Below are positions 58,569 through 63,890 of a DNA stretch of 64,000 nucleotides, one piece after another (within the stretch, counting starts at the first letter, position 1; every line of letters begins with the position of its first letter). Under the pieces are notes generated by a model. That model saw only the letters and a list, made by a program, of their open reading frames with translations, did not search any database and was not told where the DNA came from. Source of the DNA: an uncultured virus (IMG/VR IMGVR_UViG_3300042549_004976) (Duplodnaviria > Heunggongvirae > Uroviricota > Caudoviricetes); IMG/VR virus record IMGVR_UViG_3300042549_004976; one strand, 5' to 3'. A program made the translations under genes and the position numbers.

Positions 58569-59276
58569 ATGAGCAGACTTGTGATCAAGTTCCCTACGCG
58601 GAACCGACCTGAAAAATTCAAAACCGTCTTTTCCCGCTACCTCACCTTCTTGAGTGGACGGCATGATGTTCGTTTCATCCTGTCAATGGATGAGGATGAT
58701 CTCACCATGAATAATCCTGAAATGCACCAGTGGATTTCCACTCGTGCAGAGAACGCACAGATTGAGTGCTTCTACGGGAACTCTAAGTCCAAGATTGAGG
58801 CTTGCAATGCCAACCTAGAGGGTGTTGACGGCGATGTACTGCTGTTGGCATCAGATGACATGGTGCCCGTGCAGATGGGATACGATGATATAATCTTTGG
58901 TGCTTTCTCTCAAGCCTTTCCTGACTTTGATGGTGCAATCAAGTTTTGGGATGGTCTGCGTCCAAAGGAAGACCCGCTGATGACTCTCACAGTCATGGGC
59001 TTCCCCCTGTACAAGCAGTTCGGATACATTTACAATCCTGAGTACAAGTCTCTGTACTGCGACAACGAGCAGACACAGGTTTGTGCTGCGCTGAACAAGT
59101 TGCGCCGTTGCGACCTGTGCATTATTCAGCACCAGTGGACGGGTGAGCCATTCGACACCCTCCACGCTCGTAACGAAAACGCGGAGATGTACGGGGTGGA
59201 CGGTGAAACATTCAAGCGCAGAGGCGCAAATAAATTTGATATGGAGGAAATGTTCAATGCCAGTATCAGCAAGTGA
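58569..59276 (+). CDS. Glycosyltransferase (GT-A fold, GT2-like)
   Basis: IKFPTRNRP, SKIEACN, LLLASDDM (DxD-like), YCDNE.T, IIQHQW. Confidence 0.8.
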   Translation: MSRLVIKFPTRNRPEKFKTVFSRYLTFLSGRHDVRFILSMDEDDLTMNNPEMHQWISTRAENAQIECFYGNSKSKIEACNANLEGVDGDVLLLASDDMVPVQMGYDDIIFGAFSQAFPDFDGAIKFWDGLRPKEDPLMTLTVMGFPLYKQFGYIYNPEYKSLYCDNEQTQVCAALNKLRRCDLCIIQHQWTGEPFDTLHARNENAEMYGVDGETFKRRGANKFDMEEMFNASISK

Positions 59277-59895
59277 AATCAAGTTCAGCATCCTGATGCT
59301 GTCCATTCCCGAACGCATCGAATCCATGACCGCTGCGGTGAAGCATCTACAAGAGCAAGCCGATGCTGTAGGACAAGGCAAGGCGGTAGAGATTCTTGTG
59401 CTGTTGGACAATCGCTCCAAGAGCATTTCCGAGAAGCGTAATGACCTCCTGCAAATGGCACGGGGTAAGTACATTGCGTTCTTGGACGATGACGATGCAG
59501 TCAGCAAGGACTACATGAGTAAGATCCTGACCGCTATTGACCAAAACGATGTTGACTGCATCTCATTCAACCAGTGGTGCAGCATCAACGGCGAACCAAT
59601 GGATGTGGAGTTCGGCATCGGAAATCCCCACGGGCAGTTGTGGCGGGACGAAGACGGCTTCCTTGGTGACATCAAGCGTCCACCGTACCATATGTGCCTG
59701 TGGCGCAGTGATATTGCCAAGAGTGAATCTTTTAATCCTGTATATGGAGCCAACGGGCAGTCTTCGGAAGACATTGATTGGCTCATGCGCCTGTACCCCA
59801 AGATTCAGACGGAACATCACATTGATGACTCGTTGCACGGGTACATCTATAGTTCCGAGACAACCACCTCCCTTGTTCCACAGGAGCAGCAATGA
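59257..59895 (+). CDS. Glycosyltransferase family 2
   Basis: GGAGG RBS; FSILM....R, SI.EKRN.LL..ARGKYIAFLDDDD, SEDIDW. Confidence 0.85.
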   Translation: MPVSASEIKFSILMLSIPERIESMTAAVKHLQEQADAVGQGKAVEILVLLDNRSKSISEKRNDLLQMARGKYIAFLDDDDAVSKDYMSKILTAIDQNDVDCISFNQWCSINGEPMDVEFGIGNPHGQLWRDEDGFLGDIKRPPYHMCLWRSDIAKSESFNPVYGANGQSSEDIDWLMRLYPKIQTEHHIDDSLHGYIYSSETTTSLVPQEQQ

Positions 59896-60584
59896 AAGTA
59901 ATATCGTTCAGCCTGTGGGGCGACAAGCCCACATACACCGTTGGTGCGGTCAAGAATGCCGATCTTGCGGCTACGCTGTTTCCTGATTGGACTTGTATGT
60001 TCTACTGCTTTAGTTCTGTTCCAAAAGAAATAATTGCAGAACTACAATCCCGTAAGAATGTGATTGTACGGATGATAGACGGTGATTATAATTCGGAAGA
60101 CAGCCGTGGTATGTTCCACCGATTCCTTCCCGCTGATGAAGAAGGCGTAGAGTACATGATGTCCCGTGACACAGATTCCCGTCTATCCGAGCGTGAGCGG
60201 CTTGCTGTTGAAGAGTGGTTGGCTAGTGGAGCCGATCTCCATGTTATGCGTGATCATCCGTATCACGGTGCGCCAATACTTGGTGGTATGTGGGGGGTTA
60301 AGGGCGGAAAACTCAAGGGTATTGCTCGTGACATGGAAGAGTTTCAGCCAAGCAGCGATAAGGGACAAGACCAGTCTTTCCTGTGGGAATGGGTGTGGAG
60401 CAAGGTTACTGATGATGAAATCACCTGCTGTGTACACGATCCATTTTTTCAGAAGGCTCCGTTCCCTACTGGTGCTACTCGTGGAGAAACCAATGGTGGA
60501 GTGTGGTTCGTAGGACAAGTCTTTGACGAGAACGACAAATACAATAGTGAACAGGACACAAATTTGGTTAGAGATATCCTATGA
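59892..60584 (+). CDS. Putative glycosyltransferase (GT-A-like)
   Basis: VISFSLWG...Y..GA..N, MFHRFLP, SRDTDSR (DxD), HVMRDHPYH, ILGGMWG, DQSFL. Confidence 0.6.
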   Translation: MKVISFSLWGDKPTYTVGAVKNADLAATLFPDWTCMFYCFSSVPKEIIAELQSRKNVIVRMIDGDYNSEDSRGMFHRFLPADEEGVEYMMSRDTDSRLSERERLAVEEWLASGADLHVMRDHPYHGAPILGGMWGVKGGKLKGIARDMEEFQPSSDKGQDQSFLWEWVWSKVTDDEITCCVHDPFFQKAPFPTGATRGETNGGVWFVGQVFDENDKYNSEQDTNLVRDIL

Positions 60585-60952
60585 AAATTGAAGTATCAAA
60601 TGGTGAAATAGCAGACAAGGTTTCTATTTTGATGATAAAGAAAGAACGCCTTATTGACGACAGCAAGATCATAAATGTATCAAAAGAACTAGAGGAGATT
60701 ACTCCTGATTTTTTGATAATAATGAATTTTGATCACCCTCTGTATCTTGAACTCAAACAAGTAAATTCTTCTCTTTGGGATATAGAAGATCAAATTCGTG
60801 ATAAAGAACGAGTAAAACTTTTTGACGATGAGTTTGTCTCTCTTGCTAGAGCAGTATACTTTATAAACGACAAAAGAGCAGAAATAAAGAAGACAATAAA
60901 CACTATTACGGGATCTTCTTTGACTGAAGAAAAGTCCTATGCCAAATATTGA
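60581..60952 (+). CDS. DUF6165-like protein
   Basis: EVS.GE..DK.SIL.IK...L..VN..LWDIED.IR...F..LARAVY..ND.RA.IK..IN...GS...EEKSY. Confidence 0.7.
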   Translation: MKIEVSNGEIADKVSILMIKKERLIDDSKIINVSKELEEITPDFLIIMNFDHPLYLELKQVNSSLWDIEDQIRDKERVKLFDDEFVSLARAVYFINDKRAEIKKTINTITGSSLTEEKSYAKY

Positions 60953-61634
60953 TGTGAATCCAAATACACTATATGTTCACCATCATCTTGGTCTAGGTGA
61001 CCATATCATTTGCAATGGTCTTGTCCGATTCCTGTTGAAACAAACCAATGCTAATGACCTTTGGTTGGTGGTGAAACGCAAAAACTTCAATAATGTCTCT
61101 AGAATGTTTTTGGACGATTCTCGCATCAAGTTTATACCCGTTGACGAGGATAAGAATTTCTACGAACTTCCATTAGAATGGTCTAATGTTCGTTTGGCTA
61201 GAATTGGATTTGAGCGATGCCGAGAGACAGATTTTGATGTTTCATTTTATGACTCCACAGGAATCCCTTTCACGGAAAGATGGAATTCTTGGTACTATCA
61301 GCGAGATTTAGAATGTGAACAAACGATGATGCAGGAATTGTTATTGCCTGAAAAGTTTGTGTTGGTTCACGATACTTCTAGTGTTGGTATTTTTGATCTA
61401 AAGATCAATACCAATTTACCTGTGATTCGTGTTTCGCGTTTGAACAGTGAGAAAACCATGTTTGATTGGATTGGTGTTATAGAACGAGCAACTGAAATAC
61501 ACTGCATAGATTCGTCTTTCATTCATCTAGTGAATTCTGTTGATTTGGTAACCGACTCTTTGTTCTATCACAAAATAAAGTCAAGCAAGATGCAGATTTG
61601 TTTTCGTAAAAATTGGTCTGTAATAGAATATTAG
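60939..61634 (+). CDS. GT-B / GT9 (heptosyltransferase)-like protein
   Basis: HHHLGLGDHII at the N-terminus; IERATEIHCIDSSFIHL at the C-terminus. Confidence 0.65.
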   Translation: MPNIDVNPNTLYVHHHLGLGDHIICNGLVRFLLKQTNANDLWLVVKRKNFNNVSRMFLDDSRIKFIPVDEDKNFYELPLEWSNVRLARIGFERCRETDFDVSFYDSTGIPFTERWNSWYYQRDLECEQTMMQELLLPEKFVLVHDTSSVGIFDLKINTNLPVIRVSRLNSEKTMFDWIGVIERATEIHCIDSSFIHLVNSVDLVTDSLFYHKIKSSKMQICFRKNWSVIEY

Positions 61635-61646
61635 GAATATGTTTTT

Positions 61647-62390
61647 ATGAATAGTAGAATCAATGTATTGATCCCTATGGCTGGTCGTGGAGAACGATTT
61701 TCTTCCGTGGGTTATGATCTTCCAAAACCATTAATAGAAATTAATGGACGACCCATGATAGAATGGGCATTGCGTAGTTTAGATGTGGATTTTTACCTAC
61801 ACAATTTTATTTTTGTTGTACGAGACTATCAGAATGATGAAATCAACAATCGGATTGCATCAGTTCTAACCTGTCTTGTGCCAAACAATAAAATTGTAAA
61901 AATTGATTATGTCACGGAAGGACCAGCGTGTACTTGCTTGCTTGTTCGTGATATGATTGACAACGATTCTCCTCTTATGGTTGGAAACTGCGATCAAATT
62001 ATGAGATGGAATGGATCATACTTTGTAAGCAGTTGTTTAAATTCTCCATATGATGGAGTAGTGGTTACCTATGATGAAAGCACTCCAAAAAATAGTTACG
62101 CCAAATTGAATTCTCGTGGAGATGTGATTCGAATCGAAGAAAAAAATGTCATAAGCAATGTGTCTTTGAATGGTATACATTTTTGGAAACACGGTTCGGA
62201 TTTTGTTAGTTCTGCGGATTCCATGATAGAAAGTAATGAGCGGTATAACAATGAATTTTATGTTGGACCAACATATAACCACATGATCAAGACGGGAAAG
62301 CGAGTTGGCATTTTTCACATACCACGCGAATGTCATAATCCAGTCGGTGTTCCGAGTGATCTTGGAGACTTCTTGGAAAAAAATAAATGA
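61647..62390 (+). CDS. Sugar-phosphate nucleotidyltransferase (BcbE-like / NTP_transferase family)
   Basis: VLIPMAGRGERF...GY.LPKPLI.I.G.PMI, TEGPACT, NCDQ, EK..IS...G...W, NEFYV.P.YN, G.P.DL. Confidence 0.85.
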   Translation: MNSRINVLIPMAGRGERFSSVGYDLPKPLIEINGRPMIEWALRSLDVDFYLHNFIFVVRDYQNDEINNRIASVLTCLVPNNKIVKIDYVTEGPACTCLLVRDMIDNDSPLMVGNCDQIMRWNGSYFVSSCLNSPYDGVVVTYDESTPKNSYAKLNSRGDVIRIEEKNVISNVSLNGIHFWKHGSDFVSSADSMIESNERYNNEFYVGPTYNHMIKTGKRVGIFHIPRECHNPVGVPSDLGDFLEKNK

Positions 62391-62716
62391 AGAAATATAA
62401 ACTTAAAGATATGCATAGAGGATGGTTAATTGGTGATTTTGAACCGTCTGTGCTAAGGACGCAAGATTTTGAGGTGGGTGTTCTCACTCACAAAAAAGGC
62501 GAACATTGGGATGAACACTATCACAAGATAGCAACCGAAATCAATGTGTTGGTTGAAGGAAGTATGACGATAAACGGCATACATATAGAGGTTGGAGACA
62601 TCTTTATCATTGAGCCAAACGAATCCTCTGCTCCAATTTTTCTAGAGGATTGTAGAGTGCTGTGCGTGAAAACCCCTTCTGTGATTGGAGATAAATATGC
62701 AACTATTCGTGAATGA
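62387..62716 (+). CDS. Cupin-fold protein
   Basis: GWLIGDFEP; HYHKIATE metal motif; GDIFIIEP.E second motif. Confidence 0.85.
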   Translation: MKKYKLKDMHRGWLIGDFEPSVLRTQDFEVGVLTHKKGEHWDEHYHKIATEINVLVEGSMTINGIHIEVGDIFIIEPNESSAPIFLEDCRVLCVKTPSVIGDKYATIRE

Positions 62717-63890
62717 GTCTGCACTTGACAGCGAAAAGTATTTCGTAGTCACCTACAAGTTGGAGTCCGACAAGAACCTACGCGATGCCGCTTGGAACAT
62801 TGCCATCGGTCAGAGTGTTGGTAATCCAAATGTGCGGAACCGTTGGGAGACAGAGGATTTGTTTAAGAATCACTCTTGTCTAATACTCGCTGACGAGATT
62901 GAACTACAGAACAAGACATCAGGAGAAGTCAAGATTGCGTTCCCCGTGATCAACACTGATTGGGAAACAGATGGAATCAGCCATCTGCTGTGTCAGATCA
63001 TGGGTGGTCATGTTGATATTGACTTGGTGAAGAAGTGCCGCGTAGTCAAGTTGGATCTTCCACAAAGTGTTACCAAGCACTTCGCAGGACCAAAGTTTGG
63101 CATCAGTGGTATGAGGAAGTTCACGGGTCAGTACGAAAAGCCACTGCTTGGCGCGATCATCAAGCCCAAGATCGGTATCACTCCAGAAACCCTGTTGGAC
63201 ATGGTTAAAGAACTCGTTGATGGCGGAGTTGACTTCATCAAGGAAGACGAGATCATGTCAAATCCGTCTTTCTGTCCACTAGACAAGCGTGTGCACATGA
63301 TTTCAAATTATCTGCGCTCACAATCTCGTAATGTAGTATTTTGTCATACCATCAACTGTGATCCGCACATTCTTGCGGGTCGTGTTTGCAGAATCCACTC
63401 CCTTGGCGGAAACGGTGTACACATCAATGTGTGGAGCGGATATGGTGCTTACAACAGCATTCGAAAACTAGATCTTCCAATCTACCTGCATTTCCAAAGC
63501 AGCGGTGCAAAGGTTGCGACAAGCGTAAACAATCAGTTCAGTATTAGTTGGTCTGTGATTTGTCAGTTGGCTACTCTCATGGGTGTAGACACCATTCAGA
63601 CAGGAATGGTGGGAGGTTACAGCAATGACGATCCTCAAGAAATACTTGAGTGCATCAAGGTGCTACGAGAAGGAAACACAGTTCCTGCACTCAGTTGTGG
63701 CTTGCATCCAGGATTGGTTGACAAGATTACATCTCTTGTCGGAAATGACTATCTTGGGAATGCGGGTGGAGCCATTCACGGTCATCCAAACGGAACATTG
63801 TCTGGTGCGAAAGCGATGCGACAATCCGTTGATAAGACATACGGAACAGAATATACACACGCAATTGAAAAGTGGGGAAAGATACTATGA
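62697..63890 (+). CDS. RuBisCO-like protein (form IV-type large-subunit homologue, probably non-carboxylating)
   Basis: GGAG RBS; GPKFGI.G.R, PLLGAIIKPKIG, GGVDFIKEDE, PALSCGLHPG, GGAIHGHP.G...GAKAMRQ, A..KWG. Confidence 0.92.
   Translation: MQLFVNESALDSEKYFVVTYKLESDKNLRDAAWNIAIGQSVGNPNVRNRWETEDLFKNHSCLILADEIELQNKTSGEVKIAFPVINTDWETDGISHLLCQIMGGHVDIDLVKKCRVVKLDLPQSVTKHFAGPKFGISGMRKFTGQYEKPLLGAIIKPKIGITPETLLDMVKELVDGGVDFIKEDEIMSNPSFCPLDKRVHMISNYLRSQSRNVVFCHTINCDPHILAGRVCRIHSLGGNGVHINVWSGYGAYNSIRKLDLPIYLHFQSSGAKVATSVNNQFSISWSVICQLATLMGVDTIQTGMVGGYSNDDPQEILECIKVLREGNTVPALSCGLHPGLVDKITSLVGNDYLGNAGGAIHGHPNGTLSGAKAMRQSVDKTYGTEYTHAIEKWGKIL

Follow-up and report, generated by a model that had tools for sequence, protein, structure and literature searches.

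A phage RuBisCO-like protein encoded beside a nucleotidyltransferase in glycan-synthesis loci

The gene at positions 62697..63890 (plus strand) of a 64,000-nucleotide stretch of DNA from an uncultured virus (IMG/VR record IMGVR_UViG_3300042549_004976), the whole of which we call the window, encodes a RuBisCO-like protein (RLP) of 397 amino acids (aa) with an ATG start. The protein belongs to a 'form IV-like' clade that keeps the Mg/carbamate residues of enolisation and has the residues of carboxylation replaced. We consider it probable that it acts as a non-carboxylating isomerase or lyase that works by enolisation and supplies a nucleotidyltransferase (NTPt) in the synthesis of a glycan precursor. 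An earlier sequence-only reading of the gene had concentrated on its remodelled active site; the gene context, which that reading had not seen, is the strongest clue to function. Together with the NTPt, a small cupin and a short protein resembling glycerophosphodiester phosphodiesterases (GDPD-like), the RLP forms a conserved co-transcribed module within the glycan-synthesis island that this T4-like phage carries.

A conserved co-transcribed module in a glycan-synthesis island

Three genes overlap here, with that of the RLP at the 3' end. The stop codon of the NTPt gene (61647..62390, plus strand, 247 aa; sugar-phosphate NTP_transferase superfamily, Pfam NTP_transferase 1.7e-6) overlaps by 4 nt (ATGA) the start of the cupin gene (62387..62716, plus strand, 109 aa; H-x-H...E metal motif, weak Cupin_7 match at 0.039, phrog_24762), the end of which overlaps in turn the RLP start by 20 nt. 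The RLP is translationally coupled to the NTPt and the cupin. The RLP reading frame has a second in-frame start candidate, a TTG at 62685 that lies 12 nt 5' of the ATG at 62697; most close homologues share the 397-aa length. Since the window ends 110 nt past the RLP, the downstream genes were read in a second virus record (G001) with a 100% identical RLP, where they encode, in order, a methyltransferase, an unknown protein, a WavE protein, a GT1-like protein, the 146-aa GDPD-like protein, a DUF3431 protein, a UDP-galactopyranose mutase and an SDR epimerase/dehydratase. The window virus is a T4-like myovirus, with genes for the gp45 clamp, the gp44/gp62 clamp loader, RegA and RNase H, and its capsid gene has about 74% DNA identity to capsid genes of cyanomyoviruses.

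The conservation of the module was evaluated in 131 RLP loci (80 viral and 51 cellular), which were scanned with hidden Markov models (HMMs) of the partner proteins built from viral homologues. Note that these loci are related to each other, with many kindred phage contigs among them, so that counts of co-occurrence represent non-independent events. Of the 80 viral loci, 77 had the NTPt, 64 the GDPD-like protein, 53 the cupin and 36 the methyltransferase; the corresponding counts in the 51 cellular loci were 44 for the NTPt, 30 for the GDPD-like protein and 13 for the cupin. The NTPt lay no more than three genes from the RLP in 71 of its 77 viral and all of its 44 cellular occurrences, and on the same strand in 77 and 40 of them, respectively. 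Unsupervised clustering of the open reading frames (ORFs) of the 131 loci recovered the RLP in 128, the NTPt in 121, the GDPD-like protein in 84 (with a long form in 10 loci) and the cupin in 66. The next cluster, an SDR dehydratase/epimerase, was present in 40 of the 131 loci, and radical-SAM genes occurred in 16. RLP loci with the cassette span phages, Proteobacteria, Actinomycetota, bacteria of the candidate phyla radiation (CPR) and archaea. The literature searches found no paper linking RLPs to a glycan cassette of NTPt, cupin and GDPD-like proteins and, as far as they show, the link is unpublished.

Gene fusions tie the parts of the cassette to each other. Protein P0123 (667 aa) consists of an RLP followed by an NTP_transferase domain (1.7e-13), and P0272 (817 aa) and P0273 (813 aa) of an RLP, an NTPt and, at the C terminus, a cupin that can be aligned by eye with the cupin of the window. 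The truncated 288-aa record P0152 places a GDPD-like domain ahead of an RLP, and a 505-aa ORF in a Micrarchaeota locus (L102) places an NTPt ahead of a GDPD domain. All four parts of the cassette are thus joined by fusion in some lineage. A further truncated record, P0161 (487 aa), carries an RLP of the clade behind a 330-aa domain, for which an identity as GT9 (heptosyltransferase) was not supported (Pfam E = 0.2).

The partners themselves were compared with known families. The NTPt gave weak NCBIfam matches to RmlA, GlmU and AglF, and its best match in the PDB, both by sequence (1.6e-16) and by profile (6e-33), was 4evw, an uncharacterised 'NDP-sugar pyrophosphorylase', followed in the profile search by mannose-1-phosphate guanylyltransferases, HddC-like enzymes and RmlA. 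The cupin profile matched cupin_2 and quercetinase structures and, weakly, a small mannose-6-phosphate isomerase (7zvm, 0.008), with no match to PF01050 in Pfam. In the bifunctional type II phosphomannose isomerase/GDP-mannose pyrophosphorylase, a nucleotidyltransferase is followed by a C-terminal cupin. The NTPt-cupin pair and the triple fusions P0272 and P0273 have the same order of domains, and both profiles match enzymes of mannose metabolism, that of the cupin weakly; however, the cupin described here lacks the PF01050 match and the mannose pathway has no counterpart of the RLP. When the cupin profile was run against 130 genomes of the order of Azospirillum oleiclasticum, an order that probably does not include Rhodospirillum rubrum, it gave three strong matches, all beside NTPt genes, and no weak matches to other cupins. 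In the 146-aa protein, the GDPD motifs HRG, EN, E.D, HD and H.K are invariant in 31 of 31 homologues. Its profile matches the GDPD structure 7e0v at 4.5e-4 over the first 54 residues only and the 146-aa form itself has no Pfam match, but the HMM built from it also picks up archaeal versions of 250 aa with a match to Pfam PF03009 at 5.2e-23. Unnamed clusters, most of them viral, were all that Atlas searches with the cupin and with the GDPD-like protein yielded. A complex prediction of the RLP with the NTPt gave no answer (score 0.00) and is evidence neither way.

In the Legionellaceae, a divergent LicD phosphotransferase gene adjoins the RLP-NTPt pair in four of four loci. Enzymes of the LicD family transfer phospho-substituents from CDP-linked alcohols, and this adjacency hints that the activated unit could be transferable as a phospho-substituent. 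LicD was rejected as a general partner, as it was found in the four Legionellaceae loci only and in none of the viral loci.

Fold, active site and phylogenetic placement of the protein

The product of 62697-63890 is a genuine homologue of the RuBisCO large subunit, as the sequence-only reading had recognized. The protein matches the Pfam families RuBisCO_large (PF00016, 4.6e-37) and RuBisCO_large_N (PF02788, 2.5e-4), and a sequence search of the PDB returned form III RuBisCOs and RLPs at the top, with E values of 1e-37 to 1e-33 (form III structures 8dht at 1e-37 and 2cwx at 1.4e-36; RLP structures 4nas and 3nwr). An AlphaFold2 model computed with 25 relatives as input had a mean pLDDT of 95.0 and a pTM of 0.92, and Foldseek aligned it with the form III RuBisCOs 8dht, 2d69 and 3a12 at a TM score of 0.90 and with solved RLPs at 0.81-0.86. 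The structure prediction that had been called for therefore shows the RuBisCO fold, and Pfam, model and Foldseek all recover the architecture of the superfamily, an N-terminal alpha/beta domain followed by a C-terminal TIM barrel. The gene is under strong purifying selection: dN/dS was 0.056 against a 94% identical homologue (L007), and four more distant relatives, for which synonymous sites are saturated, gave pN values of 0.09-0.12.

RuBisCO-family enzymes hold Mg2+ through a carbamylated lysine and take a proton from the carbon beside the ketone of the substrate, and the role of each residue is established in the spinach numbering that we use throughout. Residues were mapped in two ways, by HMMER alignments to form III structures and by a MAFFT alignment of the protein with 25 clade members and eight references that NCBIfam scoring had labelled (three as form III, all above cut-off, one as form II, and two each as MtnW and OiaX-like). 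Both mappings agree that K175, K177, K201, D203, E204, S379, G381, G403 and G404 are kept and that ten positions are changed (E60G, T65N, W66P, N123G, H294Q, R295S, H298A, H327Q, K334Y and G380C). The by-eye mapping of the sequence-only reading was right on this evidence, since the two alignments reproduce it. The nine strings it had quoted (IIKPKIG, DFIKEDE, SCG, GGAIHGHP, IGQSVG, MGGHVD, LHFQSSG, DTIQTG and VGGYS) are all in the translation, the K175/K177 pair, the carbamylated-lysine/Mg motif and the P1-phosphate loops are retained as it had proposed, and neither alignment restores H294, R295 or K334. The intact Mg2+/carbamate set of enolisation, combined with replacement of the E60, N123, H294 and K334 residues that serve CO2 addition and the subsequent hydration and cleavage, supports the view that the protein is not a carboxylase.

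A census of 127 relatives (78 from viral and 49 from cellular loci), with identities of about 30-100%, establishes which of these changes define the family. All 127 relatives have K175, K201, D203 and E204, and 126 have K177. The replacements E60G and S61Q also hold in all 127, as does an aspartate three residues past position 123 (D126), and T65N, W66P, N123G, H294Q, K334Y and G380C were each found in 126. The E60G, N123G, H294Q, K334Y and G380C pattern holds likewise in a 26-row set of clade representatives aligned with the labelled references. The clade consequently has an invariant set of its own, composed of Q61, N65, P66, D126, Q294, Y334 and C380. Other positions vary: residue 295 is lysine in 84 relatives, serine in 40 and arginine in three, residue 298 is aspartate in 81 and alanine in 38, and residue 327 is histidine in 78 and glutamine in 49. 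Therefore positions 295, 298 and 327 are not family-defining. The proposal that the determinants of the second phosphate had been lost stands for the viral subclade of the window protein (S295/A298/Q327); it does not extend to the family, where K/R295 (87 of 127) and H327 (78 of 127) are common.

Two coupled changes were seen among the relatives. The pair K295 and D298 alternates with S295 and A298, and a histidine and a glutamine are exchanged between positions 124 and 327, with Q124/H327 in 74 rows, H124/Q327 in 48 and other combinations in five (n = 127). The exchange sites correspond to positions 105 and 301 of the protein alignment, and the exchange is itself coupled with the alternation at positions 295 and 298. 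The pattern suggests that one histidine is needed and may be supplied from either position; the catalytic histidine may have been relocated, and the exchange may be a single event inherited by one subclade.

Family models and trees place the protein apart from the enzymes with assigned names. Every relevant NCBIfam model scored far below its cut-off: 185.9 bits against 497 for form III (TIGR03326), 178.1 against 438 for NF003252, 108.7 against 489 for form II (NF010002), 161.5 against 409 and 132.9 against 513.6 for MtnW (NF007095 and TIGR03332), and 151.2 against 700 for OiaX. Two phylogenies were reconstructed, both unrooted and without form I sequences. The first, a FastTree phylogeny of 114 rows, contained the window protein, four close relatives and 109 representatives, the latter being 109 of the 112 full-length sequences (at least 340 aa) among the 150 best at 50% identity, with fragments dropped; P0161, P0166 and P0195 were not included, and only the RLP part of six fusion proteins was used. 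The window protein fell inside a clade of 26 rows, 21 of them 50%-identity representatives, with SH-like support of 99, and the MtnW (four rows), OiaX-like (nine rows) and form III/II sequences lay across the branch from it. The four MtnW rows, a single clade with SH-like support of 99, pass the NF007095 cut-off, and only one of them (P0238) also passes that of TIGR03332. In the second phylogeny, an IQ-TREE reconstruction of 56 rows under a mixture model, the 16 clade rows formed one side of a branch with SH-aLRT support of 99, and the MtnW and OiaX-like clades were supported at 100 and 99, respectively. Consequently, comparison of sequences places the protein in a separate, well-supported clade that is neither MtnW, OiaX nor form I-III, and a position outside MtnW, on which the sequence-only reading had depended, was recovered in both phylogenies. 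A strongly supported branch sets the clade apart in both trees, which, being unrooted, are compatible with, and do not demonstrate, an outgroup position relative to all other RLPs.

The RLP clade is widely distributed. A word-indexed search returned 3034 matches at E <= 1e-3, the best 120 of which all had at least 70% identity, and relatives are encoded on at least 180 viral contigs. The 51 cellular loci come from a profile scan in which each species was represented by one genome, and the RLP was recovered as an ORF in 49 of them. Carriers include a complete Pelagibacter chromosome and many SAR11 single-cell genomes, Legionella nautarum, L. maceachernii, L. drozanskii, a Tatlockia and a metagenome-assembled genome (MAG) of Francisellaceae, as well as Azospirillum oleiclasticum, Nonomuraea rosea, Turneriella, CPR bacteria and DPANN archaea. 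A Beckwithbacteria MAG (locus L095) has a 50%-identical RLP together with the cassette and the clade signature. Some short MAG contigs (L085, L086, L092 and L093) may be phage DNA, and one of them, L093, labelled Saprospirales, has a gp32-like single-stranded DNA-binding protein gene beside the cassette. A tblastn search of 50,697 cultured-phage records with the RLP gave no match, a result that we do not read as absence from cultured phages, and PHROGs held no family for the protein.

The window protein comes from a T4-like myovirus and has a 50%-identical copy in Beckwithbacteria, and we therefore take its clade to be the 'form IV-like' clade of Jaffe, Castelle, Dupont and Banfield (2019, Mol Biol Evol 36:435; PMC6389311). 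These authors, in the parts of the paper available to us, described about 90 non-redundant phage sequences, some from Myoviridae, which group with Beckwithbacteria and have divergent key residues, and left their function open. The likeness extends to myovirus-type IMG/VR contigs and to a position apart from other RLP clades; the match was made by these features and not by the sequences of that study, and it is very likely that the clade is the one already described there. The same parts of the text report no NTPt, cupin or GDPD-like cassette, no fusions and no wide cellular distribution. The suggestion of the sequence-only reading that the protein defines a distinct phage-associated clade is thus borne out as to distinctness (SH-like 99, SH-aLRT 99); the clade is neither new nor restricted to phages, given the 49 cellular loci. 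The clade may also be the IV-GOS group of Tabita.

Proposed function and its alternatives

In the scheme that we favour, the RLP would take a ketose monophosphate from the central metabolism of the host, most likely a pentulose phosphate of the ribulose-5-phosphate type, and would form a Mg-bound enediolate that is resolved by isomerisation, epimerisation or beta-elimination instead of carboxylation. The cupin could carry out a second isomerisation step. The NTPt would then couple the phosphate of the product to a nucleoside monophosphate, giving a unit activated with a nucleoside diphosphate (NDP), and glycosyl- or phospho-transferases of the island would put this unit on the surface glycan of the infected cell.

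The kinds of enzyme to which the NTPt family is coupled elsewhere bear on the substrate. In cultured cyanophages, the same NTPt family occurs without any RLP in 22 records (33-43% identity, E values of 1e-32 to 7e-56). Synechococcus phage S-SKS1 (locus L136, 6001-7428) encodes the NTPt fused to RibB (PF00926, 5.4e-65), phage Bellamy (L137, 6007-7164) has it fused to RpiB (PF02502, 3.9e-32) and followed by the same cupin (41% identity), and S-8S55 (L138, 5350-6735), S-PRM1 and B3 have a HAD_2-NTPt fusion with a GDPD-like gene nearby. The 461-aa gene of S-CAM9 resembles the HAD_2-NTPt genes by size and position only. Class II aldolase-family, PfkB and GT61 genes lie beside the NTPt module of S-SM2 and Bellamy. 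Annotations of the cyanophage fusions cover one half only ('DHBP synthase', 'phosphatase' or 'HAD-superfamily hydrolase').

RpiB makes ribulose-5-phosphate, RibB consumes it through a Mg-bound enediol, and the ancestral substrate of RuBisCO is ribulose bisphosphate. The RibB-NTPt of S-SKS1 accordingly places a Mg-dependent enediol enzyme that acts on a pentulose phosphate in the NTPt partner slot of a phage glycan island, although its fold is unrelated to that of the RLP. Furthermore, the only RLP-cupin pair of known function, that of the MTA-isoprenoid shunt, isomerises a pentulose phosphate according to the parts of the report at hand (PMC5893883). Taken together, the chemistry of RpiB and RibB, the ancestry of RuBisCO and the RLP-cupin precedent point to a pentulose phosphate as the most parsimonious guess at the RLP substrate, one that we put forward only tentatively and regard as rather doubtful by itself.

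Several considerations weigh against the favoured function. Gene context and patterns of residues are all that the functional argument has to go on. The NTPt resembles sugar-1-phosphate nucleotidyltransferases, for which an RLP product with a primary phosphate would be an unusual substrate. The phosphate site in use is ambiguous, since the P1 glycine loops are kept in all RLPs and K/R295 and H327, of the P2 site, are kept by most clade members. In the Legionellaceae, RLP and NTPt have neither a cupin nor a GDPD-like gene within 8 kb, which makes those two partners dispensable. The RibB, RpiB and HAD partners show the couplings of the NTPt family and not the role of this RLP. Finally, HAD-NTPt and RLP-NTPt co-occur in four loci, so that they probably make different products. 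Two sets of loci bear on the last point. Among 80 viral loci seeded with the NTPt, sampled from at least 578 viral NTPt relatives, 63 had a HAD domain (61 as HAD-NTPt fusions), 13 an RLP, 60 a GDPD-like gene and 26 a cupin, and none had RLP and HAD within 4 kb of each other. Of the 131 RLP-seeded loci, however, eight have a HAD homologue within 8 kb, four of them as separate HAD-NTPt genes, which rules out that RLP and HAD are strictly interchangeable. Stand-alone RibB genes were found in two RLP loci.

A more specific version of this function can be stated. The RLP would convert a substrate of the ribulose-phosphate type into an unusual keto- or deoxy-diketo-pentulose or a rearranged C4/C5 phosphate, which the NTPt would activate as a previously undescribed NDP-linked unit and which LicD-, GT- or GDPD-like enzymes would attach to glycans on the surface of phage-infected cells and of SAR11, Legionellaceae and ultra-small archaea and bacteria. 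One possible route would be beta-elimination at C1, which is a 'misfire' of RuBisCO and also the first step in RibB chemistry. We regard this version as unlikely; it would constitute the first biosynthetic role in glycan formation for the RuBisCO family.

The order of the two enzymes could also be reversed, with the NTPt making an NDP-sugar whose keto form is isomerised or epimerised by the RLP, with the cupin, while the diphosphate occupies the glycine-loop site of the RLP. The profile of the NTPt is nearest to sugar-1-phosphate nucleotidyltransferases, small cupins such as RmlC and FdtA are established to act on NDP-keto-sugars, the triple fusions of RLP, NTPt and cupin would suit a nucleotide handle that moves between active sites, and SDR dehydratase/epimerase genes accompany the RLP in 40 of the 131 loci. 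However, the keto-forming SDR is missing from most loci, including the minimal unit of the Legionellaceae, and the enzymes to which the NTPt is fused in other phages (RibB, RpiB and HAD) use free sugar phosphates. Furthermore, we know of no RuBisCO-family enzyme with a nucleotide-linked substrate. We therefore regard the reversed order as unlikely.

The adjacency of RLP and cupin is a characteristic mark of the MTA-isoprenoid shunt according to the available parts of its description (PMC5893883), and it raises the alternative of an auxiliary metabolic gene for methionine or 5'-deoxynucleoside salvage, in which the RLP would be MtnW-like or a 5-methylthioribulose-1-phosphate isomerase, the cupin a methylsulfurylase and the glycan neighbours incidental. 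The partial score of the MtnW model (161 bits) and the radical-SAM genes of 16 loci, as a source of 5'-deoxyadenosine, are in line with it. The DeepYkr RLP of R. rubrum and R. palustris, as far as that paper could be consulted, resembles the present system in its adjacent small cupin, in the enolisation-driven isomerisation of a pentulose monophosphate and in a product line (DXP to MEP) that is activated by a cytidylyltransferase, comparable to the NTPt. It differs in that the constant partner here is an NTP_transferase-family protein in glycan islands and position 294 is glutamine; MtnA and MtnP were not among the cassette families found in the 131 loci, though no model search was aimed at them. 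The likeness to MtnW/YkrW, the 2,3-diketo-5-methylthiopentyl-1-phosphate enolase, lies in being non-carboxylating, in keeping K175, K201, D203 and E204 and in having lost K334 and E60, but residues 177/294/295/327/334 are V/H/P/L/S in MtnW and K/Q/S/Q/Y in the window protein. The OiaX-like references (3-oxo-isoapionate-4-phosphate decarboxylase) form a separate clade that keeps K334 and H294, here Y and Q. Given that both MtnW models score far below cut-off, that MtnW is a separate clade in both trees, that the two MtnW and two OiaX-like references keep the H294 that is glutamine in 126 of 127 relatives, that the constant partner found is the NTPt and not MtnA, MtnP or MtnK, and that fusions bind the RLP to the NTPt, the salvage explanation appears quite improbable.

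The many replaced canonical residues, in a clade for which the accessible text of PMC6389311 gives no known activity, would also fit a non-catalytic remnant that serves as a binding or scaffold subunit of the NTPt. This explanation is very improbable: K175, K177, the carbamylated lysine and the Mg ligands stay constant over identities of about 30-100%, a new invariant set (Q294, Y334, C380, N65 and D126) lies in the same motifs, and dN/dS is low. A working CO2-fixing RuBisCO that raises carbon fixation in the host, a role that the sequence-only reading had already rejected, can be dismissed almost with certainty, despite a fold nearest to form III and homologues named 'ribulose-bisphosphate carboxylase large chain', because archaeal form III enzymes share the two-domain fold and the Mg/carbamate motif but keep all carboxylase residues and the window protein has E60, N123, H294, K334, T65 and W66 all replaced, the form III model falls far short of its cut-off, genes for a small subunit, PRK or ribose-1,5-bisphosphate isomerase are not nearby in the gene annotation of the window and G001, and the hosts of cellular copies, SAR11 and Legionella, are heterotrophs.

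Significance, other genes of the island and further observations

All RLPs with an assigned function are so far, to our knowledge, enzymes of catabolism or salvage (methionine salvage and the breakdown of acid sugars and apiose). If the proposed function is correct, an RLP clade that is wired and fused to an NTPt in glycan loci adds a biosynthetic function to the superfamily, and a large and widespread group, found in at least 180 viral contigs, SAR11 and Legionellaceae, gains a testable role. For phage biology, the cassette would be further evidence of modular kits for remodelling surface sugars in aquatic T4-like phages. There is also a consequence for annotation: metagenome sources label homologues of the protein 'ribulose-bisphosphate carboxylase large chain', and carboxylase labels on genes of this clade can inflate counts of carbon fixation in viruses and heterotrophs.

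Upstream of the cassette, the glycan island begins after regA with a putative glycosyltransferase gene (58569..59276, plus strand, 235 aa), whose product matches phrog_14945 'glycosyltransferase' at 6.6e-7 and has no Pfam family. It is followed on the same strand by a family 2 glycosyltransferase (59143..59895, 250 aa; Pfam Glycos_transf_2 1.6e-9, with weak NCBIfam glycosyltransferase matches) and a DUF6165 protein (60581..60952, 123 aa; Pfam DUF6165 2.2e-14). Directly upstream of the NTPt lies a gene for a 231-aa protein (60939..61634, plus strand) that has no Pfam, NCBIfam or PHROG family; it has homologues in six of the 80 viral loci and is part of the island, outside the conserved core. 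The G+C content of positions 60001-62000, in the island just upstream of the RLP, is 0.389, against 0.42-0.51 elsewhere in the window, which would fit an origin of the island as a mobile insert.

Some proteins outside the clade have domain arrangements of their own. In P0157 (726 aa) and P0171 (742 aa), a near-canonical form III RuBisCO (465 and 459 bits, respectively, on the form III model) is fused behind a domain of about 330 aa; by eye this N-terminal part resembles the e2b2/ribose-1,5-bisphosphate isomerase family, and the related P0274 has PF01008. P0191 (583 aa), an RLP outside the clade of the window protein, has an N-terminal extension of about 150 aa that is TIR-type by eye only. Elsewhere in the window, positions 2341-32950 hold very long same-strand ORFs (1237, 608, 1612, 777, 1638, 654, 1113, 1030 and 612 aa), which presumably encode tail-fibre or baseplate proteins of this T4-like virus.

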